From NCBI RefSeq assembly GCF_054482595.1, contig NZ_CM137008.1: a DNA stretch of 64,000 nucleotides. One strand, given 5' to 3'. The position numbers were made by a program, and so were the translations under genes. This document shows, one piece after another, positions 12,733 through 21,018 of the stretch; position 1 is the first letter of the stretch, and the number at the start of each line of letters is the position of its first letter. The notes under the pieces were generated by a model that did no database searches, was not told where the DNA came from, and saw only the letters and a program-made list of their open reading frames with translations.

Positions 12733-12795
12733 ATAACTCAAGTTATAAAAATTAGCAATAACCTTTGTTATTTTACTTTGGATAACCGTAGTTAT
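12733..12795. promoter_or_regulatory. OR operator region: three ATAAC-N4-GTTAT palindromes
   Basis: Sites at 12733-12746, 12758-12771, 12782-12795, centres ~24-25 bp apart, between cro and cI. Confidence 0.5.
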
Positions 12796-12807
12796 AGATT
12801 TGTGGGT

Positions 12808-13515
12808 ATGAAAACATTCGCAGAAAGACTAAATGCAGCCATGAGCTCAGCAGGGGTATCACAATCACAGCTTGCTGACATGGTTGGAATATCTCAGCCA
12901 GCCATACAGAAGATGTCGTCCGGTAAAACAAACGGATCTCGCAAGATGGTTGAATTAGCCAATGCTTTAAAAGTGCGTCCTGAATGGCTTAGTTCTGGTA
13001 TTGGTGAAATGAGGGATGGTGCACATGAAGAACCATCCAATGTCCGTGAGTCATCTTTAAAAGCTGTGGTATGGGAAGACATTAAAAGAAACGATGACGA
13101 GTTTGTTGCGTTGCCTCTTCTTAACGTTTCGCTTTCAGCTGGAAGCGGTAGCTGCGAGCTAGAGGAATCATCGGAGTTCTCTTTGGTTTTCAGAAAGCAC
13201 TATCTGAAAAAGATGGGAGTATCTGAAAGATCAGCCAAGCTAGTTAGGGTTGTAGGGCAAAGCATGGAACCAACGCTTCACGATGGCGATGTTGTTGGTG
13301 TTAACACGCAAGATACCACAATCAGAGATGGTAAAACCTACGCTATTTGCCAGTCTGATTTGTTACGAGTAAAAACATTAATCGCCACCCCTACATCGGT
13401 GATAATCAGATCAATAAATCGCGAAGAGTACCCGGATGAAGTAATGGATAGAGATGAATTTCATAAAACCGTAAGGATTATTGGCAGAGTATTCTGGTCG
13501 TCTCATAGTTGGTAA
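12808..13515 (+). CDS. cI: CI-like repressor (HTH plus S24/LexA-like autocleavage domain)
   Basis: N-terminal HTH, C-terminal GQSMEPT...DGD motif; start set at first ATG of the TTG-initiated ORF. Confidence 0.8.
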   Translation: MKTFAERLNAAMSSAGVSQSQLADMVGISQPAIQKMSSGKTNGSRKMVELANALKVRPEWLSSGIGEMRDGAHEEPSNVRESSLKAVVWEDIKRNDDEFVALPLLNVSLSAGSGSCELEESSEFSLVFRKHYLKKMGVSERSAKLVRVVGQSMEPTLHDGDVVGVNTQDTTIRDGKTYAICQSDLLRVKTLIATPTSVIIRSINREEYPDEVMDRDEFHKTVRIIGRVFWSSHSW

Positions 13516-13757
13516 CCGATAATCAGAAGAAGACTTACGGAAGTGCGGAGGGATAATGGAATTTCTGATAGTTTTTGTTGTTGTTTTGGTCATCATTCTT
13601 TTTGTTTTGCTAAGCATTAGCAAAAAGCTATCTCAAATGATTGAACATAGCTCTAATCGCGCAAAATAGACTGGCCCCCTGAATCTCCAGACAACCAATA
13701 TCACTTATTTAAGTGATAGTCTTAATACTAGTTTTTAGACTAGTCATTGGAGAGCAG

Positions 13758-14123
13758 ATGATTGATGTCTTAGGACCGGAGAAACGCAGACGGCGTACTA
13801 CACAGGAAAAGATCGCTATTGTTCAGCAGAGTTTTGAACCGGGAATGACAGTCTCCCTTGTTGCCCGGCAACACGGTGTGGCAGCCAGCCAGTTATTTCT
13901 CTGGCGCAAGCAATACCAGGAGGGAAGTCTTACTGCTGTGGCCGCAGGAGAACAGGTCGTTCCTGCCTCTGAACTTGCTGCCGCCATGAAGCAGATTAAA
14001 GAACTCCAGCGCCTGCTCGGCAAAAAAACGATGGAAAATGAACTCCTTAAAGAAGCCGTTGAATACGGGCGTGCAAAAAAGTGGATAGCGCACGCGCCCT
14101 TATTGCCCGGGGATGGGGAGTAA
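13758..14123 (+). CDS. insC: IS2 transposase OrfA (InsC)
   Basis: 121 aa [26 protein letters not shown]..., matches IS2 InsC. Confidence 0.9.
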
Positions 14124-14986
14124 GCTTAGTCAGCCGTTGTCTCCGGGTGTCGCGTGCGCAGTTGCACGTCATTCTCAGACGAACCGATGACTGGAAAGAT
14201 GGTCGCCGCAGCCGTCACTCAGATGATACGGATGTGCTTCTCCGTATACACCATGTTATCGGAGAGCTGCCCACATATGGTTATCGTCGGGTATGGGCGC
14301 TGCTTCGCAGACAGGCCGAACTTGATGGTATGCCTGCGATCAATGCCAAACGTATTTACCGGATCATGCGCCAGAATGCGCTGTTGCTTGAGCGAAAACC
14401 CGCTGTACCGCCATCGAAACGGGCACATACCGGCAGAGTGGCTGTGAAAGAAAGTAATCAGCGATGGTGCTCTGACGGGTTCGAGTTCCGCTGTGATAAC
14501 GGAGAAAAACTGCGAGTCACGTTCGCGCTGGACTGCTGTGACCGTGAGGCACTGCACTGGGCGGTCACTACGGGCGGCTTCAACAGTGAAACAGTACAGG
14601 ACGTCATGCTGGGAGCGGTGGAACGCCGTTTCGGCAACGAGCTTCCGGCGTCTCCAGTAGAGTGGCTGACGGATAATGGTTCATGCTACCGGGCTAATGA
14701 AACACGGCAGTTTGCCCGGATGTTGGGGCTTGAACCGAAGAACACGGCGGTGCGGAGTCCGGAGAGTAACGGCATAGCAGAGAGCTTCGTGAAAACGATA
14801 AAGCGTGACTACATCAGTGTCATGCCCAAACCAGACGGGTTAACGGCAGCAAAGAACCTTGCAGAGGCATTCGAGCATTATAACGAATGGCATCCGCATA
14901 GTGCACTGGGTTATCGCTCGCCACGGGAATATCTACGGCAGCAAGCCAGTAATGGGTTAAGTGATAACAGGTGTCTGGAAATATAG
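14081..14986 (+). CDS. insD: IS2 transposase OrfB (InsD)
   Basis: 301 aa ORF overlapping insC as in IS2. Confidence 0.9.
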
Positions 14987-15193
14987 GGGCAAATCCACAA
15001 AAGAAGAAGAGCATCTAATTGATATAAAAGAGATTCTATCTGATATAAAAATCACATTAGATGAAATAAAATACACAACAGATCTAATTGAACAGTATAA
15101 AATACCAACCCCAAACGAGAGAAAAGCAATAGATCAATATCGTATTGACTTAGAAATCGACGAAATGCTAAGCAAAAGAAAAGACTAAAAACA

Positions 15194-15220
15194 CCCGGCC
15201 TCAGCGCCGGGTTTTCTTTT
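15194..15220 (+). terminator. Rho-independent terminator after the rex-locus gene
   Basis: CCCGGC-loop-GCCGGG hairpin followed by TTTTCTTTT. Confidence 0.5.
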
Positions 15221-15385: not shown

Positions 15386-15424
15386 ATAAGTTAGGTTATT
15401 GACCACACCTATAACCTAAGTTAT
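15386..15424. promoter_or_regulatory. OL operator region: two ATAAC/G-N4-GTTAT sites flanking a putative pL -35 TTGACC
   Basis: Sites at 15386-15399 and 15411-15424, same half-sites as OR. Confidence 0.45.
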
Positions 15425-15472
15425 CTTTAAGCCATCAGCAGGACGCTGGTAGCCAAACGGAACAGATTGGCA

Positions 15473-15515: not shown

Positions 15516-15708
15516 CCAAAGAGTAGTTGGCTTTGGGATTGGATGAATGAGCAGGCTGATGCTCGACCAATGTATAAACAGCGCTCATGGCAAGCAGTAA
15601 CCAATCTGCGCCTCAAGACAGCGTCACTGGTAGTGCGGGCGCTCTAACCAGTAAGCCGGAATTCAGCACCGGCCATCCAATCACCAAAGTCAATCATCGG
15701 AGGTCAAC

Positions 15709-16008
15709 ATGACAGTAGTCATTACATATCTGGCTGACGATAACGCCAGAAATCGCCGCAGAGCACGCAGACAGACTCAACGTGAACAGGCAATGCAAGA
15801 GCAGCGACTGGCGCGAAAAATTGCGCTAAAGCTCTCTGGTTGCGTCAGAGCAGATAAAGCAGCATCACTCGGAAGCCTTCGCTGCAAGAAGGCAGAAGAA
15901 GTCGAGCGTAAACAGAACCGTATTTACTACCGCAAGCCACGCAGTGAAATGGGTGTGACTTGTGTTGGTCGCCAGAAAATGAAATTAGGCAGCAAACCAC
16001 TTATTTGA
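15709..16008 (+). CDS. N: Antiterminator N-like
   Basis: 99 aa; arginine-rich N-terminus NARNRRRARRQ; C-terminus matches recalled lambda N (R.YY.KP....G.TC.GRQK.K..S.PLI). Confidence 0.7.
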   Translation: MTVVITYLADDNARNRRRARRQTQREQAMQEQRLARKIALKLSGCVRADKAASLGSLRCKKAEEVERKQNRIYYRKPRSEMGVTCVGRQKMKLGSKPLI

Positions 16009-16016
16009 GGTGAGAT

Positions 16017-16439
16017 GTGGAAGAACAAGCAAACAAGATTCTCGTAGAACTACTGCAAAAAGCCAGCAATGGAATAGACGCGGCTGTTTCATTTAGCCAG
16101 GCACAGATTCCTGATGTTGTTCATCAGTTGCTAATATGGAGTTTTGTCCATAGCGCACTTTTCCAAGTGACTGGGTTGTTGCTTTTAATTGCAGCAATGA
16201 AACTTCCTAGTTTTGCAAGAACGGCAAGAAATAATGGCGAGAGATGGACGTCTTTCGATGGATGTCCAAATGATGGATATTTTATATCTTCGTTTTATTA
16301 CGATATATGCACTGTATTTGCTCCTGTATTTGGCCCAATTATTGGCGTTTTAATTATTGCCTTCAATTTCGAATGGTTGAAGATTTGGCTTGCACCTAAG
16401 TTATTCCTAATTGAATATGCAGCGTCATTGGTTAAGTAA
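16017..16439 (+). CDS. Predicted multi-pass membrane protein in the early-left operon (SieB position)
   Basis: 140 aa, GTG start after SD GAGGTGAG; several hydrophobic segments; family not recognised. Confidence 0.4.
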   Translation: MEEQANKILVELLQKASNGIDAAVSFSQAQIPDVVHQLLIWSFVHSALFQVTGLLLLIAAMKLPSFARTARNNGERWTSFDGCPNDGYFISSFYYDICTVFAPVFGPIIGVLIIAFNFEWLKIWLAPKLFLIEYAASLVK

Positions 16440-16490
16440 TTTCAGGCCGAATATTCGGCCTTTATTTTTAGCATAAACAACAGAGGTGAA

Positions 16491-16625
16491 TATGAACGCA
16501 GTTGAATTTACAAAATGGATGGCAGAGCAAGATATCACAGGAGCCGACGAAAAGGCTGTGTACTACATGGCTATGCTATGGATTCACAAAGCAAAAGAGG
16601 CTGCAAATGCTCTTGGAGGTGAGTG
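16491..16625 (+). CDS. Small hypothetical phage protein
   Basis: 44-codon ORF found by translation (MNAVEFTKWMAEQDITGADEKAVYYMAMLWIHKAKEAANALGGE). Confidence 0.25.
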
Positions 16626-16826
16626 ATGTGCGAGTTTTATGAAGCAGATATCAAACGCCCAGAAATGGCAAGTGATGCGACATTACGTGATTACTTCGCA
16701 GCAAAGGCTATGCAAGCAATGATTAGCAATCCATCGATTATCGATAATGATTCTGATGGAGATGTTAATTATGCAGCAAGCGCTGCATATAAGTTTGCAG
16801 ACGCAATGCTCAAAGCTCGCGAATAA
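16623..16826 (+). CDS. Hypothetical phage protein
   Basis: 67 aa ORF, acidic, no recognised family. Confidence 0.3.
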   Translation: MMCEFYEADIKRPEMASDATLRDYFAAKAMQAMISNPSIIDNDSDGDVNYAASAAYKFADAMLKARE

Positions 16827-16961
16827 GCACTGTGTATTCATTCCAACGAGTGAATACACGGAGCAATGTCGCTCGTAACTAAACAGGAGCCGACTTGTTC
16901 TGATTGTTGGAAATCTTCTTTGCCCTCCAGTGTGAGGGCAATTTTTTTTGATGGAGGATAT

Positions 16962-17930
16962 ATGAGTGAAGTAACAGATTTAGTTGTTATTGAAAAAGCA
17001 AATGCAATGACTGTATTTCAGTCTGCCGACCAGATTGAAGAAATTCTCCAAAAGGTTGAACGTGAAGTTATGTCATTTGTGCCTGATATCACAACGGCAA
17101 AGGGCAGAAAGGAGATCGCTTCTCTGGCGTATAAAGTTGCGCAGACGAAAACATATCTCGATGGTCTTGGCAAAGACCTTGTTGCTGAACTGAAGGAAAT
17201 TCCAAAGCTAATTGATGCCAACCGCAAGACAGTGCGCGATCGCCTTGATGAACTGAAAGCCAAGGCGCGCCAGCCTCTTACTGATTATGAGGAAGAACAG
17301 GCGCGGATTAAAGCCGAAGAAGAAGCTAAGGCAGCAGCTGAAGCTCTCGCAAAGCAAATTGAGTCTGACCATGAAATAGCGATTTTGATGGATCGCGAAT
17401 TTGACCGCCAAAGAGAAGAGGCAAGACTCAAAGCGGAGCAGGAAAAGCGAGAGCATGAAGAACGATTAAAAAGAGAAGCTGAAGAGAAAGCCAGAGCTGA
17501 AGCCGAAGCAAAGGCAAAAGCCGAAATTGAAGCAGCAGCAAGACGAGAAGCAGAGGCTAAGGCCGCAGCGGAACGTGCAGAGCGTGAACGCATTGAAGCC
17601 GAGCAACGAGCACAGCGCGAAGCAAAAGAGGCAGCAGAACGAGCTGAAAGAGAAAAGCATGCGGCAATTGAAGCAGAACGCCGTAAAGCACAGGAGGAGG
17701 CAGAACGAATCCGGCGCGAGGCTGAAGCAAAAGAGCAAGCCAGAATAGCAGAAGAAAAAAGAATCAAGGACGAAGAAGAGCGTAGAGCAAAGGATAAAGC
17801 TCACCGGAAAGAAGTAAATAACAAAATACTTGCTGACCTTATCAAGGTTGGCGCATCAGAAGATGTTGCTAAAAATATCATAACAGCCATCGTAAAAGGC
17901 GAAGTATTCGCAACAAAAATAACCTACTAA
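16962..17930 (+). CDS. Coiled-coil protein with long Ala/Glu/Lys/Arg-rich region
   Basis: Start set at Met after SD GGAGGA; central ~150 aa EAEAKAKAEIEAAARREAEAK-type repeats. Confidence 0.4.
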   Translation: MSEVTDLVVIEKANAMTVFQSADQIEEILQKVEREVMSFVPDITTAKGRKEIASLAYKVAQTKTYLDGLGKDLVAELKEIPKLIDANRKTVRDRLDELKAKARQPLTDYEEEQARIKAEEEAKAAAEALAKQIESDHEIAILMDREFDRQREEARLKAEQEKREHEERLKREAEEKARAEAEAKAKAEIEAAARREAEAKAAAERAERERIEAEQRAQREAKEAAERAEREKHAAIEAERRKAQEEAERIRREAEAKEQARIAEEKRIKDEEERRAKDKAHRKEVNNKILADLIKVGASEDVAKNIITAIVKGEVFATKITY

Positions 17931-17954
17931 TAAAACCAACATAAGGAACCACCC

Positions 17955-18086
17955 ATGATTTACGCAATCGCGGGAGGCGCTCGCATGGGTGCCTTCCAAT
18001 TAAATGAATCTTTACTTGAACGAATCACCCGTAAATTACGTGACGGATGGAAAAGAGTTGAGGTCTTATTATGCGCAATGAAATAG
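17955..18086 (+). CDS. cIII: CIII-like protease inhibitor
   Basis: 43 aa; ESLLERITRKLRDGWKR matches recalled lambda CIII core. Confidence 0.7.
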   Translation: MIYAIAGGARMGAFQLNESLLERITRKLRDGWKRVEVLLCAMK

Positions 18087-18223
18087 CCATTAATCACCAG
18101 ATGCTTCGTGCGGCACAAAACAAAGCAGTAATAGCCAGATTTATTGGTGATTCCAAAATGTGGCTTGAAGCAAATAAAGCGATGAAATCAGCTATCAACC
18201 TTCCGTGGTATCGCAGGAAATGA
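18071..18223 (+). CDS. kil: Kil-like host division inhibitor
   Basis: 50 aa; QNKAVIARFIGDSKMWLEANKAMKS resembles recalled lambda Kil; position after cIII. Confidence 0.55.
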   Translation: MRNEIAINHQMLRAAQNKAVIARFIGDSKMWLEANKAMKSAINLPWYRRK

Positions 18224-18378
18224 GTTTTACAGATAACTGGTCAGACGAAGAATTCATTCGTCAGATGAAAGATTTAATCGGTAACGAAGGAGATATTCAT
18301 GTCACTTGCAACCACAGTGAAGGAGAGCAAGTTACAGAGACGCATGTACACGCAGAAAGCTCTCTGGTATCGCCATAA
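18220..18378 (+). CDS. Small hypothetical phage protein
   Basis: 52-codon ORF by translation; no family recognised. Confidence 0.2.
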   Translation: MSFTDNWSDEEFIRQMKDLIGNEGDIHVTCNHSEGEQVTETHVHAESSLVSP

Positions 18379-18477
18379 TGGCGACCGCGAAGGAATGCGG
18401 GTATGCCTTAATTTGTCCCGAGTCGAAGTATTAAATCAGCGTTATTTCCTTGGGCCATGTCCATTCTGAGGTGAATT

Positions 18478-19185
18478 ATGGATTTGAATAAATTCGATGA
18501 GCCATTCAGCCCTGAAGATATCGAATGGCGAATACAGCAAAGCGGTAAAACACGCGATGGCAAAGTGTGGGCTATGGTGCTGGCTTATGTCACGAACCGG
18601 GCAATCATGAAACGCCTGGACGATGTTTGCGGCAAAGCAGGATGGCGCAATGAATACCGCGATATTCCCAACAACGGCGGCGTTGAATGCGGCATATCAA
18701 TAAAGATTGATTCCGAATGGGTAACCAAATGGGATGCTGCTGAAAACACGCAGGTAGAAGCCGTCAAAGGTGGTCGTTCCGGTGCAATGAAGCGCGCTGC
18801 CGTTCAGTGGGGAATCGGTAGGTATCTGTATAACCTTGAGGAAGGTTTCGCACAAACATCTCTCGATAAAAAGCAGGGGTGGCACAGGGCAAAACTCAAG
18901 GATGGAACAGGATTTTACTGGCTCCCTCCATCGCTGCCGGGATGGGCAATCCCAGCATCAGATAACAAACCATCACCAGAAAATACCAACCAGAAATCTC
19001 CATCGGTTAACTGCGAACAAATCCTGAAAGACTTCAGCGATTATGCGTCAACAGAAACTGACAAGAAAAAACTCATCGAGCGTTATCAGCGTGACTGGCA
19101 ATTAATGGCTGGCAACGAGGAGGCGCAGGCTAAATGCGTTCAGGTAATGAACATCAGAGTTAACGAGCTAAAACAGGCGGCATAA
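18478..19185 (+). CDS. Putative single-strand annealing protein (Rad52-like)
   Basis: 235 aa immediately upstream of ssb in the position occupied by bet in lambda; family call tentative. Confidence 0.45.
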   Translation: MDLNKFDEPFSPEDIEWRIQQSGKTRDGKVWAMVLAYVTNRAIMKRLDDVCGKAGWRNEYRDIPNNGGVECGISIKIDSEWVTKWDAAENTQVEAVKGGRSGAMKRAAVQWGIGRYLYNLEEGFAQTSLDKKQGWHRAKLKDGTGFYWLPPSLPGWAIPASDNKPSPENTNQKSPSVNCEQILKDFSDYASTETDKKKLIERYQRDWQLMAGNEEAQAKCVQVMNIRVNELKQAA

Positions 19186-19659
19186 ATGGCAAGTAGAGGC
19201 GTAAATAAGGTGATCATTATTGGTCGCCTTGGGCATGATCCAGAAATCAGATATTCACCATCAGGAACGGCATTTGCAAACCTTACAGTTGCTACGTCAG
19301 AACAATGGCGTGATAAGAAAACTGGAGAGCAAAAGGAGCAGACGGAGTGGCACCGCGTGGTAATGAGCGGGAAACTGGCAGAAATTGCCAGCGAATATCT
19401 GCGAAAAGGCTCTGAGGTTTATCTTGAAGGAAAATTGCGGACAAGAAAATGGCAGGATCAAAGCGGACAGGATAGGTTCACTACCGAAGTCATCGTGGGC
19501 GTTGGTGGAACCATGCAAATGCTTGGTGGCAAGCAAGGAGGCAATGAACAGTCTTCACCTCAGCGAAATAACGGTCAGCAACAAAGACAGCAATCTCAGC
19601 AGCAGGGGAATCACAGCGAACCACCTATGAACTTCGACGATTCGGATATTCCGTTCTAG
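19186..19659 (+). CDS. ssb: Single-stranded DNA-binding protein
   Basis: 157 aa; OB-fold region nearly identical to E. coli SSB; Gln/Gly-rich tail ending DIPF. Confidence 0.9.
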
Positions 19660-19668
19660 GAGCTGAAT

Positions 19669-20148
19669 ATGAAAATCTGCTCAAGATGCCATCAACAGAA
19701 GGAAGAAAGGGACTTTCAAATCAGAAGAGCATCCAGAGATGGATTAACTGCCGCTTGCCGGGCTTGCCTGGCTGAATATGACAAAGAGCGCGCGGGATTG
19801 CCACATCGAGTATCAGCAAGGAGAAAATATCAATCATCGGAACGCGGAAGAGAACGGTGTAACGCAGCCAAAAAGCGGTTCATTCAGAGCAACCCATGGA
19901 AAAGAAAAGCCCACATCATCGTGGGTAATTTTTTGCGCGACGGTAAGCTAATCCGACCACCACAATGTGAGTGCTGCGGATCAGAATGTAAACCACAGTC
20001 GCACCACTGCGACTACAGCAAACCAACCGATGTGATGTGGCTCTGCAAGTCATGTCATGTCGAGTGGCACAAACATAACAAACCTATCTACCCAGACGAG
20101 GAACCAGTAACTCTCCCCTTCCCTCGTCACGCTATTCACGCAATTTAA
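19669..20148 (+). CDS. Zn-ribbon/HNH-type nuclease-like protein
   Basis: CSRCH and CRAC N-terminal motifs; C-terminal SHHCDYSKP...WLCKSCHVEWH resembles the HNH His-Me finger. Confidence 0.45.
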   Translation: MKICSRCHQQKEERDFQIRRASRDGLTAACRACLAEYDKERAGLPHRVSARRKYQSSERGRERCNAAKKRFIQSNPWKRKAHIIVGNFLRDGKLIRPPQCECCGSECKPQSHHCDYSKPTDVMWLCKSCHVEWHKHNKPIYPDEEPVTLPFPRHAIHAI

Positions 20149-20156
20149 GGACTTAC

Positions 20157-20705
20157 ATGAATCACTTGATGGTTGACCTTGAAACAATGGGCAACGGGCC
20201 ATACGCGCCAGTTATTTCTATTGGGGCGGTATTCTTTGATCCGAATACCGGAGAAACAGGAGAAGAGTTCTCGGTAAATATCTCGCTTGAATCATCAATG
20301 CGATATCGAGCGCGTCCTGACGCTTCAACGATTTTATGGTGGCTGGAACAGAGTGAAGAAGCCAGAAAATCGCTAACCAGCAACACTCAGGAGCTTTCAA
20401 CGGCTCTTTCATGGTTATCTGAATTCATCATAAAGAACGCTAACCACAAATTCGTTCAGGTTTGGGGGAATGGAGCATCATTTGACTGCGTTATTCTCCG
20501 AAACAGTTATTCGCTGACAGGGCAGCCAGTTCCGTGGCAGTGGTGGAATGACCGCGACGTAAGAACAATCGTCGAACTTGGGAAGGTAATAGGATTCGAC
20601 CCTAAGCGAGATATGCCATTCAAAGGAACTCGCCACAACGCTCTTGATGATGCCATTCACCAAGCCAAATACGTTTCAGCGATCTGGAAAAAGTTAGCTA
20701 AATAA
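20157..20705 (+). CDS. DEDDh-type 3'-5' exonuclease
   Basis: MVDLETMG (Exo I) and HNALDDA (Exo III) motifs. Confidence 0.65.
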   Translation: MNHLMVDLETMGNGPYAPVISIGAVFFDPNTGETGEEFSVNISLESSMRYRARPDASTILWWLEQSEEARKSLTSNTQELSTALSWLSEFIIKNANHKFVQVWGNGASFDCVILRNSYSLTGQPVPWQWWNDRDVRTIVELGKVIGFDPKRDMPFKGTRHNALDDAIHQAKYVSAIWKKLAK

Positions 20706-20721
20706 TCAACAGGAGAAAACC

Positions 20722-21018
20722 ATGCCAGCGCCTCTGTATGGTGCGGATGACCCGCGCCGCTGTTCCGGCAATTCCGTATCGGAGGTGCTGGATAAATTCA
20801 GAAAAAACTACGATCGGATAATGTCGCTACCTCAGGAAACGAAAGAGGAAAAGGAATTTCGCCATTGTATATGGCTTGCAGAGAAAGAAGAACGCGAGCG
20901 AATTTACCAGACATCAATCCGACCATTCCGCAAAGCCACATATACCCACTTCCCTGAATATATCGACCCGCGCCTGCGTAATTACCGCTCACGCTATGGC
21001 GCTATCAGTAATGACTGA
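20722..21018 (+). CDS. Hypothetical phage protein
   Basis: 98 aa ORF, no recognised family. Confidence 0.3.

Follow-up and report, generated by a model that had tools for sequence, protein, structure and literature searches.

A mosaic cargo segment of a P22-like early-left operon carrying an Agt-family long-helix protein and a gp34-family membrane protein

The 64,000-nt window analysed here (contig NZ_CM137008.1, NCBI RefSeq assembly GCF_054482595.1) contains a P22-like/lambdoid prophage whose early-left (PL) operon lies on the plus strand and runs in the order PL, N, cargo, cIII, kil, a Gp33-like gene, erf, ssb, an HNH-like gene, a DnaQ-like gene and abc2. The cargo, which is the subject of this study, consists of four open reading frames (ORFs) between positions 16017 and 17930, directly behind the antiterminator gene N. 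It is standard mosaic phage cargo of known families that are common in sequenced phages. Gene identities, architecture, distribution and genomic linkage are shown by the sequences, whereas expression timing, topology in the membrane and the biochemical activities of the two larger proteins are inferred. With a probability of about 0.5, we read the region as a mosaic accessory segment of the PL operon that comprises three cassettes split by terminator-bearing boundaries, in which a gp34-family membrane protein would act at the inner membrane early in lytic growth and an Agt-like protein would temper a toxic early or recombination-module protein.

Each of the four ORFs matches a PHROG family, with E values from 3e-18 to 1e-117, and because all of these matches are strong, the four are identified from their sequences as conserved genes and not as chance ORFs. 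Specifically, a 140-aa membrane protein is encoded at 16017–16439 (plus strand; phrog_3054, E 2.5e-52, 137 of 137 profile positions), followed by small ORFs of 46 aa at 16486–16626 (plus strand; phrog_24660, E 3.1e-34) and 67 aa at 16623–16826 (plus strand; phrog_2201, E 3.4e-18), and by a 322-aa Agt/Mog-family protein at 16962–17930 (plus strand; phrog_1376, E 8e-110). These positions, the two lengths and the presence of two small ORFs agree with an earlier sequence-only reading of the stretch. That reading also presented both larger proteins as novelties that could not be named, a view that has to be abandoned: each is more than 90% identical to published phage genes (CUS-3, Sf6 gp34/gp33, HF4s, IME10, mEp043). 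Near-identical genes stand in the same order in Sf6 (gp33/gp34), CUS-3 (ECRS218_0047-0049) and HF4s (gp36/gp37), with the difference that Sf6 and CUS-3 carry ral (and Sf6 also gene 36) between N and gene 34 and lack the small-ORF cassette. At the DNA level, positions 15600–18500 match phages piecewise, at about 96–98% identity in the listed best matches (CUS-3, Sf6, IME10, N7, HF4s, Sf101, mEp213, HK633), and parts of 15700–18100, from N to cIII, are matched in 2,312 of 5,426 complete E. coli genomes.

The locus itself adds little: its genes have been represented among sequenced phages from the time of Sf6 and phi80. It is chiefly useful for drawing attention to two families that are more interesting as unexplored classes than the locus is. 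Agt ranks among the most widespread early-operon proteins of temperate Proteobacteria phages; it is Pfam-less and routinely mislabelled, and it has one unexplained genetic phenotype, in phi80. The gp34 family is an unstudied group of membrane proteins, probably immediate-early, whose motifs are invariant in temperate and virulent phages alike. Word searches of the literature for Agt, GamL and a membrane protein encoded next to N yielded no functional work on either family, and Agt is not among the components counted in a 2025 survey of lambdoid recombination modules (PMC12315714).

The 322-aa protein and the Agt family

BLASTP aligns the 322-aa protein end to end with phi80 Agt (PHI80_40, AFV29176.1), also 322 aa long, at 51% identity and E 2e-64. 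This alignment identifies it as a full-length homologue of phi80 Agt/Mog, equivalent to Sf6 gp33, and supplies a name for a protein that the sequence-only reading had been unable to match to one. In HF4s, IME10 and mEp043 the aligned parts of the gene show 98–100% identity; the HF4s copy, 100% identical throughout the 61% of the query that aligns, is described in its GenBank record as "similar to phage phi80 Agt". In the phi80 record, agt is annotated as "anti-toxin for Gam; Mog (modifier of Gam)" and the adjacent gamL as "host RecBCD/SbcCD enzymes inhibitor; toxic without Mog". The two Agt proteins share their length, a three-part architecture, and an operon position and orientation upstream of the recombination genes. 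They differ in that phi80 agt abuts gamL, whereas in the window cIII, kil, the Gp33-like gene, erf and ssb intervene and the inhibitor is Abc2 instead of GamL. The conserved start is the ATG at 16962 behind a GGAGG, invariant in an alignment with four relatives. A longer 354-aa ORF opening at 16866 was rejected, as its extension passes through a terminator hairpin that is itself invariant, and relatives interrupt it with a stop codon or a 1-nt indel.

The AlphaFold2 (AF2) model of the protein (pLDDT 85) comprises a three-helix N-terminal bundle, a continuous helix spanning residues 81–295, and a small C-terminal domain (residues 296–322). The N-terminal helical domain corresponds to residues 1–112 (nt 16962–17297), and the long helix of 215 residues would extend over about 32 nm in this model. 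Its core, residues 151–285 (nt 17412–17816), is 61% charged, 26% Ala and 7% hydrophobic, contains neither Gly nor Pro, and holds 53 i/i+4 opposite-charge pairs within 135 residues. The Ala/Glu/Lys/Arg-rich composition described in the sequence-only reading is therefore real, yet the coiled coil deduced from it is not the better description: in the best heptad register only 13% of a/d positions of 151–285 carry LIVMFWY, short of a classical heptad coiled coil. Because of this charge, hydrophobic and a/d composition, the core fits better as an ER/K single alpha-helix (SAH), a known class of spacer domain with which it shares high charge, low hydrophobicity, i/i+4 pairs and one continuous modelled helix; a dimeric Ala-based coiled coil is a possible alternative. 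The coding strand shows an extreme purine bias over 17250–18000 (AT skew 0.55–0.59), across the ER/K-coding stretch, which gives rise to long spurious antisense ORFs such as 17285–17767 (160 aa) and 17466–17804 (112 aa).

The protein has no transmembrane (TM) segment, no signal peptide and no hydrophobic N-terminus. A Pfam search found nothing, NCBIfam and PADLOC returned only sub-threshold compositional matches, and sequence searches of the PDB, with the single sequence and with a profile, gave low-complexity matches only. The PGAP name "cell envelope biogenesis protein TolA" was rejected as a compositional artefact: the protein scores 9.1 bits against TIGR02794, for which the cutoff is 59.45. 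It shares with TolA a long Ala/Lys/Glu-rich helix, whereas the N-terminal membrane anchor and the TolA C-terminal domain are absent and the gene sits in a phage early operon. An identification of Agt with HK75 Gp33, a trigger of the P2 OLD nuclease, was likewise rejected, Gp33 being the small gene before erf.

When residues 1–150 were used in an exhaustive HMMER scan, the Agt family came to 5,050 clusters (50% identity) at E<=1e-3 and 3,618 at E<=1e-10. Among 142 representatives, none has a Pfam domain, and 130 retain both terminal domains, with about 35 conserved C-terminal residues ending in Tyr. The median length is 322 aa (interquartile range 309–343) and the median spacer 173 aa. Several features complicate the recovery of these genes from databases. 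The gene is split into two ORFs by a frameshift in CUS-3 (locus L001, 2765–3734) and in UTI89, where a screen table holds only a fragment-like locus, RS13095, at the Agt position; PHROGs keeps the halves as separate families 17211 and 21365; and many database copies end at the repetitive Ala/Glu/Lys-coding stretch, for which assembly breaks are the probable cause. Copies are variously labelled "TolA", "fibrinogen binding protein", "tail-fiber protein" (or "tail fibre") and "colicin import membrane protein".

The position of the family at the head of recombination genes recurs widely and holds for modules of all types. In a sample of 80 IMG/VR Agt loci, 75 carry a recognised recombination-module gene (single-strand annealing protein (SSAP), exonuclease, single-strand binding protein (SSB) or anti-RecBCD) after Agt, on the same strand and within the region scanned. 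Agt proteins at least 98% identical to one another are combined with Erf, an Abc1-like protein and Abc2; with Erf, SSB (with or without HNH and DnaQ) and Abc2; with RecT and MuGam; or with lambda Gam, RecT and Exo. Beyond the lambdoids, the gene lies directly before erf-exo in Pseudomonas phage JBD44, which has no annotated inhibitor, before cIII...recT-exo in an Erwinia phage, in Vibrio phage Seahorse, and on metagenomic contigs with ERF and YqaJ genes. Two long proteins encoded beside membrane-gene homologues, a 329-aa "tail protein" in FSL SP-058 and a 395-aa neighbour in a Vibrio phage, were examined and are no Agt relatives.

The membrane protein, its transcription unit and the variable slot

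The 140-aa ORF opens with a GTG 8 nt past the stop codon of N (16006–16008), with GAGGTGAG ahead of it, so that the tight coupling to N noted from the letters alone is confirmed; CUS-3 and Sf6 have ATG at this codon. The protein is 95% identical to the CUS-3 gene product, and its gene is the counterpart of Sf6 gene 34. Relatives number 478 in a single-sequence search and 1,432 in a profile search, all of them unnamed and without Pfam domains. For the protein itself, Pfam (E<=10), NCBIfam and PADLOC gave no family match, and a Foldseek search of the PDB with its model returned nothing at E<=0.001. Phi80 gp41 was considered as a relative and rejected. The "several hydrophobic segments" of the sequence-only reading resolve into two strong TM segments (about 38–62 and 95–118), with mean Kyte-Doolittle values of 2.24 and 2.41 over 48 non-redundant homologues; the remainder amounts to a moderately hydrophobic C-terminal helix. 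The AF2 model (pLDDT 77) contains helices at 3–72, 93–116 and 119–139.

Alignment of the family shows a conserved N-terminal tail (residues 1–45), TM1, a variable loop, TM2 and a conserved C-terminal helix (118–140). The mean frequency of the top residue is 0.87 in residues 1–45 and 0.92 in 118–140, against 0.24–0.39 in TM1, loop and TM2, and the loop ranges from 8 to 50 residues across homologues. Conserved ends around a hypervariable hairpin, as read from these alignments, are the most striking feature of the protein. Compared with HK639 and with locus L073, the first 41 and last 22 codons keep 82–91% amino-acid identity, while third-codon positions are 32–46% identical (32–59% overall). Retention of the protein sequence despite diverged third positions indicates that the ends are under purifying selection and have not been exchanged recently. 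By comparison with HF4s-type genes, the 5' end of the gene is 94–97% identical in DNA, which would mark a mosaic junction within the gene. The loop is conserved within one loop type, as between HF4s and HK639.

Two motifs, QIPDVxHQLLxW and WLKIWxAPKxYLIEYAA, flank the TM helices and are invariant in the alignments. Both are kept in distant homologues in the N4-like Salmonella phage FSL SP-058, the phi92-like JLBYU50, Vibrio phages and the Ralstonia jumbo phage RsoM2USA, and homologues also occur in strictly virulent phages. RsoM2USA (344 kb; locus L100, 1669–3403) carries three tandem paralogues, each with both motifs and a different hairpin and loop. The number of Lys and Arg residues within 12 positions averages 0.06 before TM1, 3.12 after TM1, 0.75 before TM2 and 1.33 after TM2. 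By the positive-inside rule, this distribution favours a cytoplasmic loop with both conserved termini outside.

Consensus scanning places a PL-like promoter (TTGACC-17-TATCTT) on the plus strand at 15399–15427, with repeated operator-like TATAAC/AAGTTA motifs on both sides, and this site is inferred to drive N and all genes below it. The same scan found no promoter-like site between PL and the 140-aa gene, though a weak promoter could escape it. The first intrinsic terminator after PL, a tL1-like element on the plus strand at 16444–16472, lies directly 3' of the membrane gene and consists of a hairpin with a 7-bp GC-rich stem (16444–16461) and a U-run, UUUAUUUUU (-11.9 kcal/mol, z -4.1). It aligns with the Sf6/CUS-3 boundary sequence bsq4, one of the "boundary sequences" of the mosaic. 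The second, tL2-like terminator on the plus strand (16920–16950; 8-bp stem and U8, -13.2 kcal/mol, z -3.6) has its hairpin at 16920–16941, ends 12 nt before the Agt start, is invariant in five phages and is annotated as tL2A in Sf6. A further conserved hairpin at 16836–16866 (8 bp, AUUCAUUC/GAGUGAAU, -6.6 kcal/mol, z -2.9) is part of the invariant boundary sequence that separates the cargo slot from the tL2-like terminator.

Since no terminator precedes the one directly behind the membrane gene, this gene and N probably constitute an N-independent immediate-early unit, with the Agt gene opening the delayed-early part. HK639 has the same layout, PL, putL, gp45 and the membrane gene followed by two annotated terminators, with put RNA in place of N. 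Placement inside such a unit, together with the similar layout in HK639, argues that the membrane gene works early in the lytic cycle and against a role in lysogen immunity; the presence of the family in virulent phages points in this direction too. Early expression of the membrane protein would parallel that of T4 Imm.

Between the two terminators, the 46-aa and 67-aa ORFs are joined by a GTGA start/stop overlap and form a two-gene insert. Of positions 16470–16840, the first 139 nt, which cover most of the 46-aa ORF, have no match in the phage collection. The domain of the 67-aa ORF is found again at the C-terminal end of phrog_2201, a longer profile of 226 positions; the ORF is present in Sf101 at 98%, and its product has no Pfam match. 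The pair was considered as a candidate moron, an autonomous promoter-gene-terminator insert: terminator-like hairpins stand on both sides of it, and the consensus scan shows no promoter-like site upstream of 16486. In the window it is inserted into the conserved boundary sequence (bsq4 in Sf6) of which the terminator after the membrane gene forms part; at this site EC6622 and mEp213 carry other genes, and Sf6 and CUS-3 carry none.

The view that the N-proximal slot holds variable accessory cargo is upheld by a comparison of related loci, in line with one of the checks that the sequence-only reading had proposed. In 45 related loci with a recognisable N, the N-to-Agt interval varies from 388 to 2289 bp and holds many different contents, among them ral, Sf6 gene 36 and several unrelated small ORFs; a gp34-family gene is found in only 6 of the 45. 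As slot contents vary in this way, each of the three (membrane gene, small-ORF pair and Agt gene) is a cassette of its own, and together they do not make up one system. In HK639 (L012/L102; 33849–34196, 32533–33048), putL and gp45 are followed by a gp34-family gene and next by a 171-aa gene at the place that Agt occupies in others; this phage carries both GamL and MuGam without Agt.

Proposed roles and alternative explanations

Under the favoured reading, the 140-aa protein, translationally coupled to N, would appear together with N, immediately early after infection or induction, whereas the repressed lysogen would not make it. It would most likely act at the inner membrane during early lytic growth, where it may block competing phages or alter a conserved envelope target. 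The 46-aa and 67-aa ORFs would be a replaceable pair of small genes. In the Agt-like protein, a charged single alpha-helix would hold the helical bundle and the C-terminal domain about 30 nm apart, and its position at the head of the recombination/anti-RecBCD module is conserved. Its homology to Agt, which in the phi80 record counters the toxicity of GamL, makes it most likely that it binds some toxic product of the early genes or of the recombination module and moderates its effect. As the window contains neither GamL nor Gam, the partner here would have to be another protein, for example Abc2, Kil or the Gp33-like protein.

Several observations weigh against this reading. The sole functional statement for the Agt family is the GenBank feature note in the phi80 record, and fold searches found generic helical bundles only. 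Promoters and terminators are consensus matches only, and the topology of the membrane protein has the positive-inside rule as its single basis. Furthermore, a recognised anti-RecBCD gene is present in 61 of the 80 Agt loci (about 76%), which is not above the background of about 83% in lambdoid recombination modules, of which 43 of 246 lack one (PMC12315714). With no enrichment over that background, linkage of Agt specifically to RecBCD inhibition is not demonstrated. A narrower proposal makes the 322-aa protein the dedicated antitoxin of a Gam-type RecBCD inhibitor, in a strict two-gene pair as annotated in phi80. The phi80 notes themselves favour it, as do divergent Agt members that lie directly before GamL or lambda-type Gam in 8 IMG/VR loci, as in phi80. 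However, a search of the whole window found no GamL or Gam, and its RecBCD modulator is Abc2, 2.8 kb away; adjacency upstream of a Gam-type inhibitor is confined to phi80 and some relatives and is not family-wide; a search of the whole HK639 genome found GamL and no Agt-family gene; and in JBD44 Agt precedes Erf directly. Given the window, HK639 and the absence of enrichment, a Gam-antitoxin function does not generalise across the family, and we regard the strict pair as very unlikely here.

Protection of the lysogen by novel superinfection-exclusion or host-takeover factors, comparable to lambda SieB or Rex, would suit the location in the slot of lambda ral/sieB/ea10, the polymorphic region of the membrane protein, and the three jumbo-phage paralogues, whose tandem arrangement suggests an arms race. 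SieB resembles the 140-aa protein as a small inner-membrane phage protein encoded near N (lambda and P22), but the lambda record has sieB on the strand opposite N, whereas the window gene is coupled to N, and the two proteins show no sequence similarity. The sequence-only reading had held that a SieB ortholog beside a replication or recombination accessory would make this ordinary lambdoid content; a SieB identity was rejected (BLASTP against lambda SieB E 67; no Pfam family at E<=10; PHROG 3054 as the only match), while the 322-aa protein does come close to a recombination accessory. Because the consensus scan gave the membrane gene no separate promoter-like site and the gene belongs to the repressed, repressor-controlled PL unit, it appears unlikely to protect a lysogen; its homologues in strictly virulent phages, the lack of similarity to SieB or any PADLOC defence model, and the tracking of the 322-aa protein with the recombination module instead of the slot also speak against it. 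As an account of both proteins, lysogen exclusion is unlikely; exclusion or host takeover by the membrane protein during lytic growth is possible. The membrane protein could instead target a conserved host inner-membrane machine, such as a protease or the division or translocation apparatus, and tune lysis-lysogeny or host physiology without exclusion. Terminal motifs that are invariant across phages of Enterobacteria, Vibrio and Ralstonia, and an immediate-early placement next to N and near cIII/kil, speak for such a target, which we nonetheless consider rather unlikely: there is no homology to any known effector, and the type-specific conserved loops (HF4s versus HK639) look like specificity determinants. 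In addition, a UTI89 over-expression screen in which a fragment of the corresponding prophage was enriched for filamentation speaks weakly against a division inhibitor, as that fragment begins only downstream of the membrane gene (PMC6206680). Highly improbable is a single envelope-spanning device in which the membrane protein anchors a TolA-like long helix. The two genes are neighbours in the window, Sf6, CUS-3 and HF4s, PGAP uses the TolA name, and the helix of about 32 nm resembles TolA domain II; against this, two terminators and a swappable cassette separate the genes, the membrane gene accompanies Agt in only 6 of 45 loci and occurs without it in HK639, and the long protein has neither a TM segment or signal peptide nor a significant TIGR02794 score.

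A more far-reaching extension, which we consider unlikely to hold, is that the two large Pfam-less families each represent an undescribed functional class. The Agt family could be a general "ruler" that sets its end domains about 30 nm apart and buffers or masks recombination and anti-RecBCD proteins, for example by keeping host sentinels such as OLD or retrons from sensing that RecBCD is inhibited. In the gp34 family, temperate and virulent phages could have in common a polymorphic membrane effector of the immediate-early phase, with termini that dock on a universal envelope target and a swappable hairpin and loop that set specificity, in effect a new exclusion or takeover module.

Neighbouring genes and elements

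Upstream of the cargo, the antiterminator N (99 aa) is encoded on the plus strand at 15709–16008 (phrog_271, E 1.6e-36) and is labelled N in CUS-3, HF4s and others. The cI gene (12778–13515) lies upstream of PL and is followed by an insertion sequence (IS), an IS2-like element in the interval 13556–15212, with terminal inverted repeats at 13669–13707 and 14958–14999 and a 5-bp target duplication, CAAAA. The element breaks a 98-aa gene located between cI and a bidirectional terminator (15193–15212), in a rexAB-like slot upstream of PL. The rejoined product (13556–13668 and 15005–15188) matches phrog_18389 end to end (E 5e-62) and has one N-terminal TM helix and a charged tail. That the element cuts N off from PL was considered and rejected, as it sits between cI and PL.

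Immediately downstream of the Agt gene lie cIII (17955–18086) and kil (18071–18223), both on the plus strand and with matches to phrog_550 and phrog_2055 for the two genes. The recombination module then occupies 18220–21018 on the plus strand, as defined by PHROG matches and the Sf6 annotation. It comprises the Gp33-like small protein (18220–18378), Erf (18478–19185), SSB (19186–19659), the HNH-like gene (19669–20148), the DnaQ-like exonuclease gene (20157–20705) and the anti-RecBCD protein Abc2 (20722–21018). The ORF at 18220–18378, between kil and erf, is 90% identical to HK75 Gp33, which is encoded by a 56-aa gene before erf. A July 2026 preprint (bioRxiv 10.64898/2026.07.10.737580) reports that HK75 Gp33 on its own sets off the abortive-infection nuclease OLD of P2, and proposes it as a new RecBCD manipulator. 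It also describes this neighbourhood, in which both the Agt and the gp34 families lie, as an emerging hotspot where phage recombination functions and host defences come into conflict. Within 19669–21018 of the window, the HNH-like and DnaQ-like genes are inserted between ssb and abc2, and related IMG/VR loci display all combinations of these inserts, with none, either or both present.

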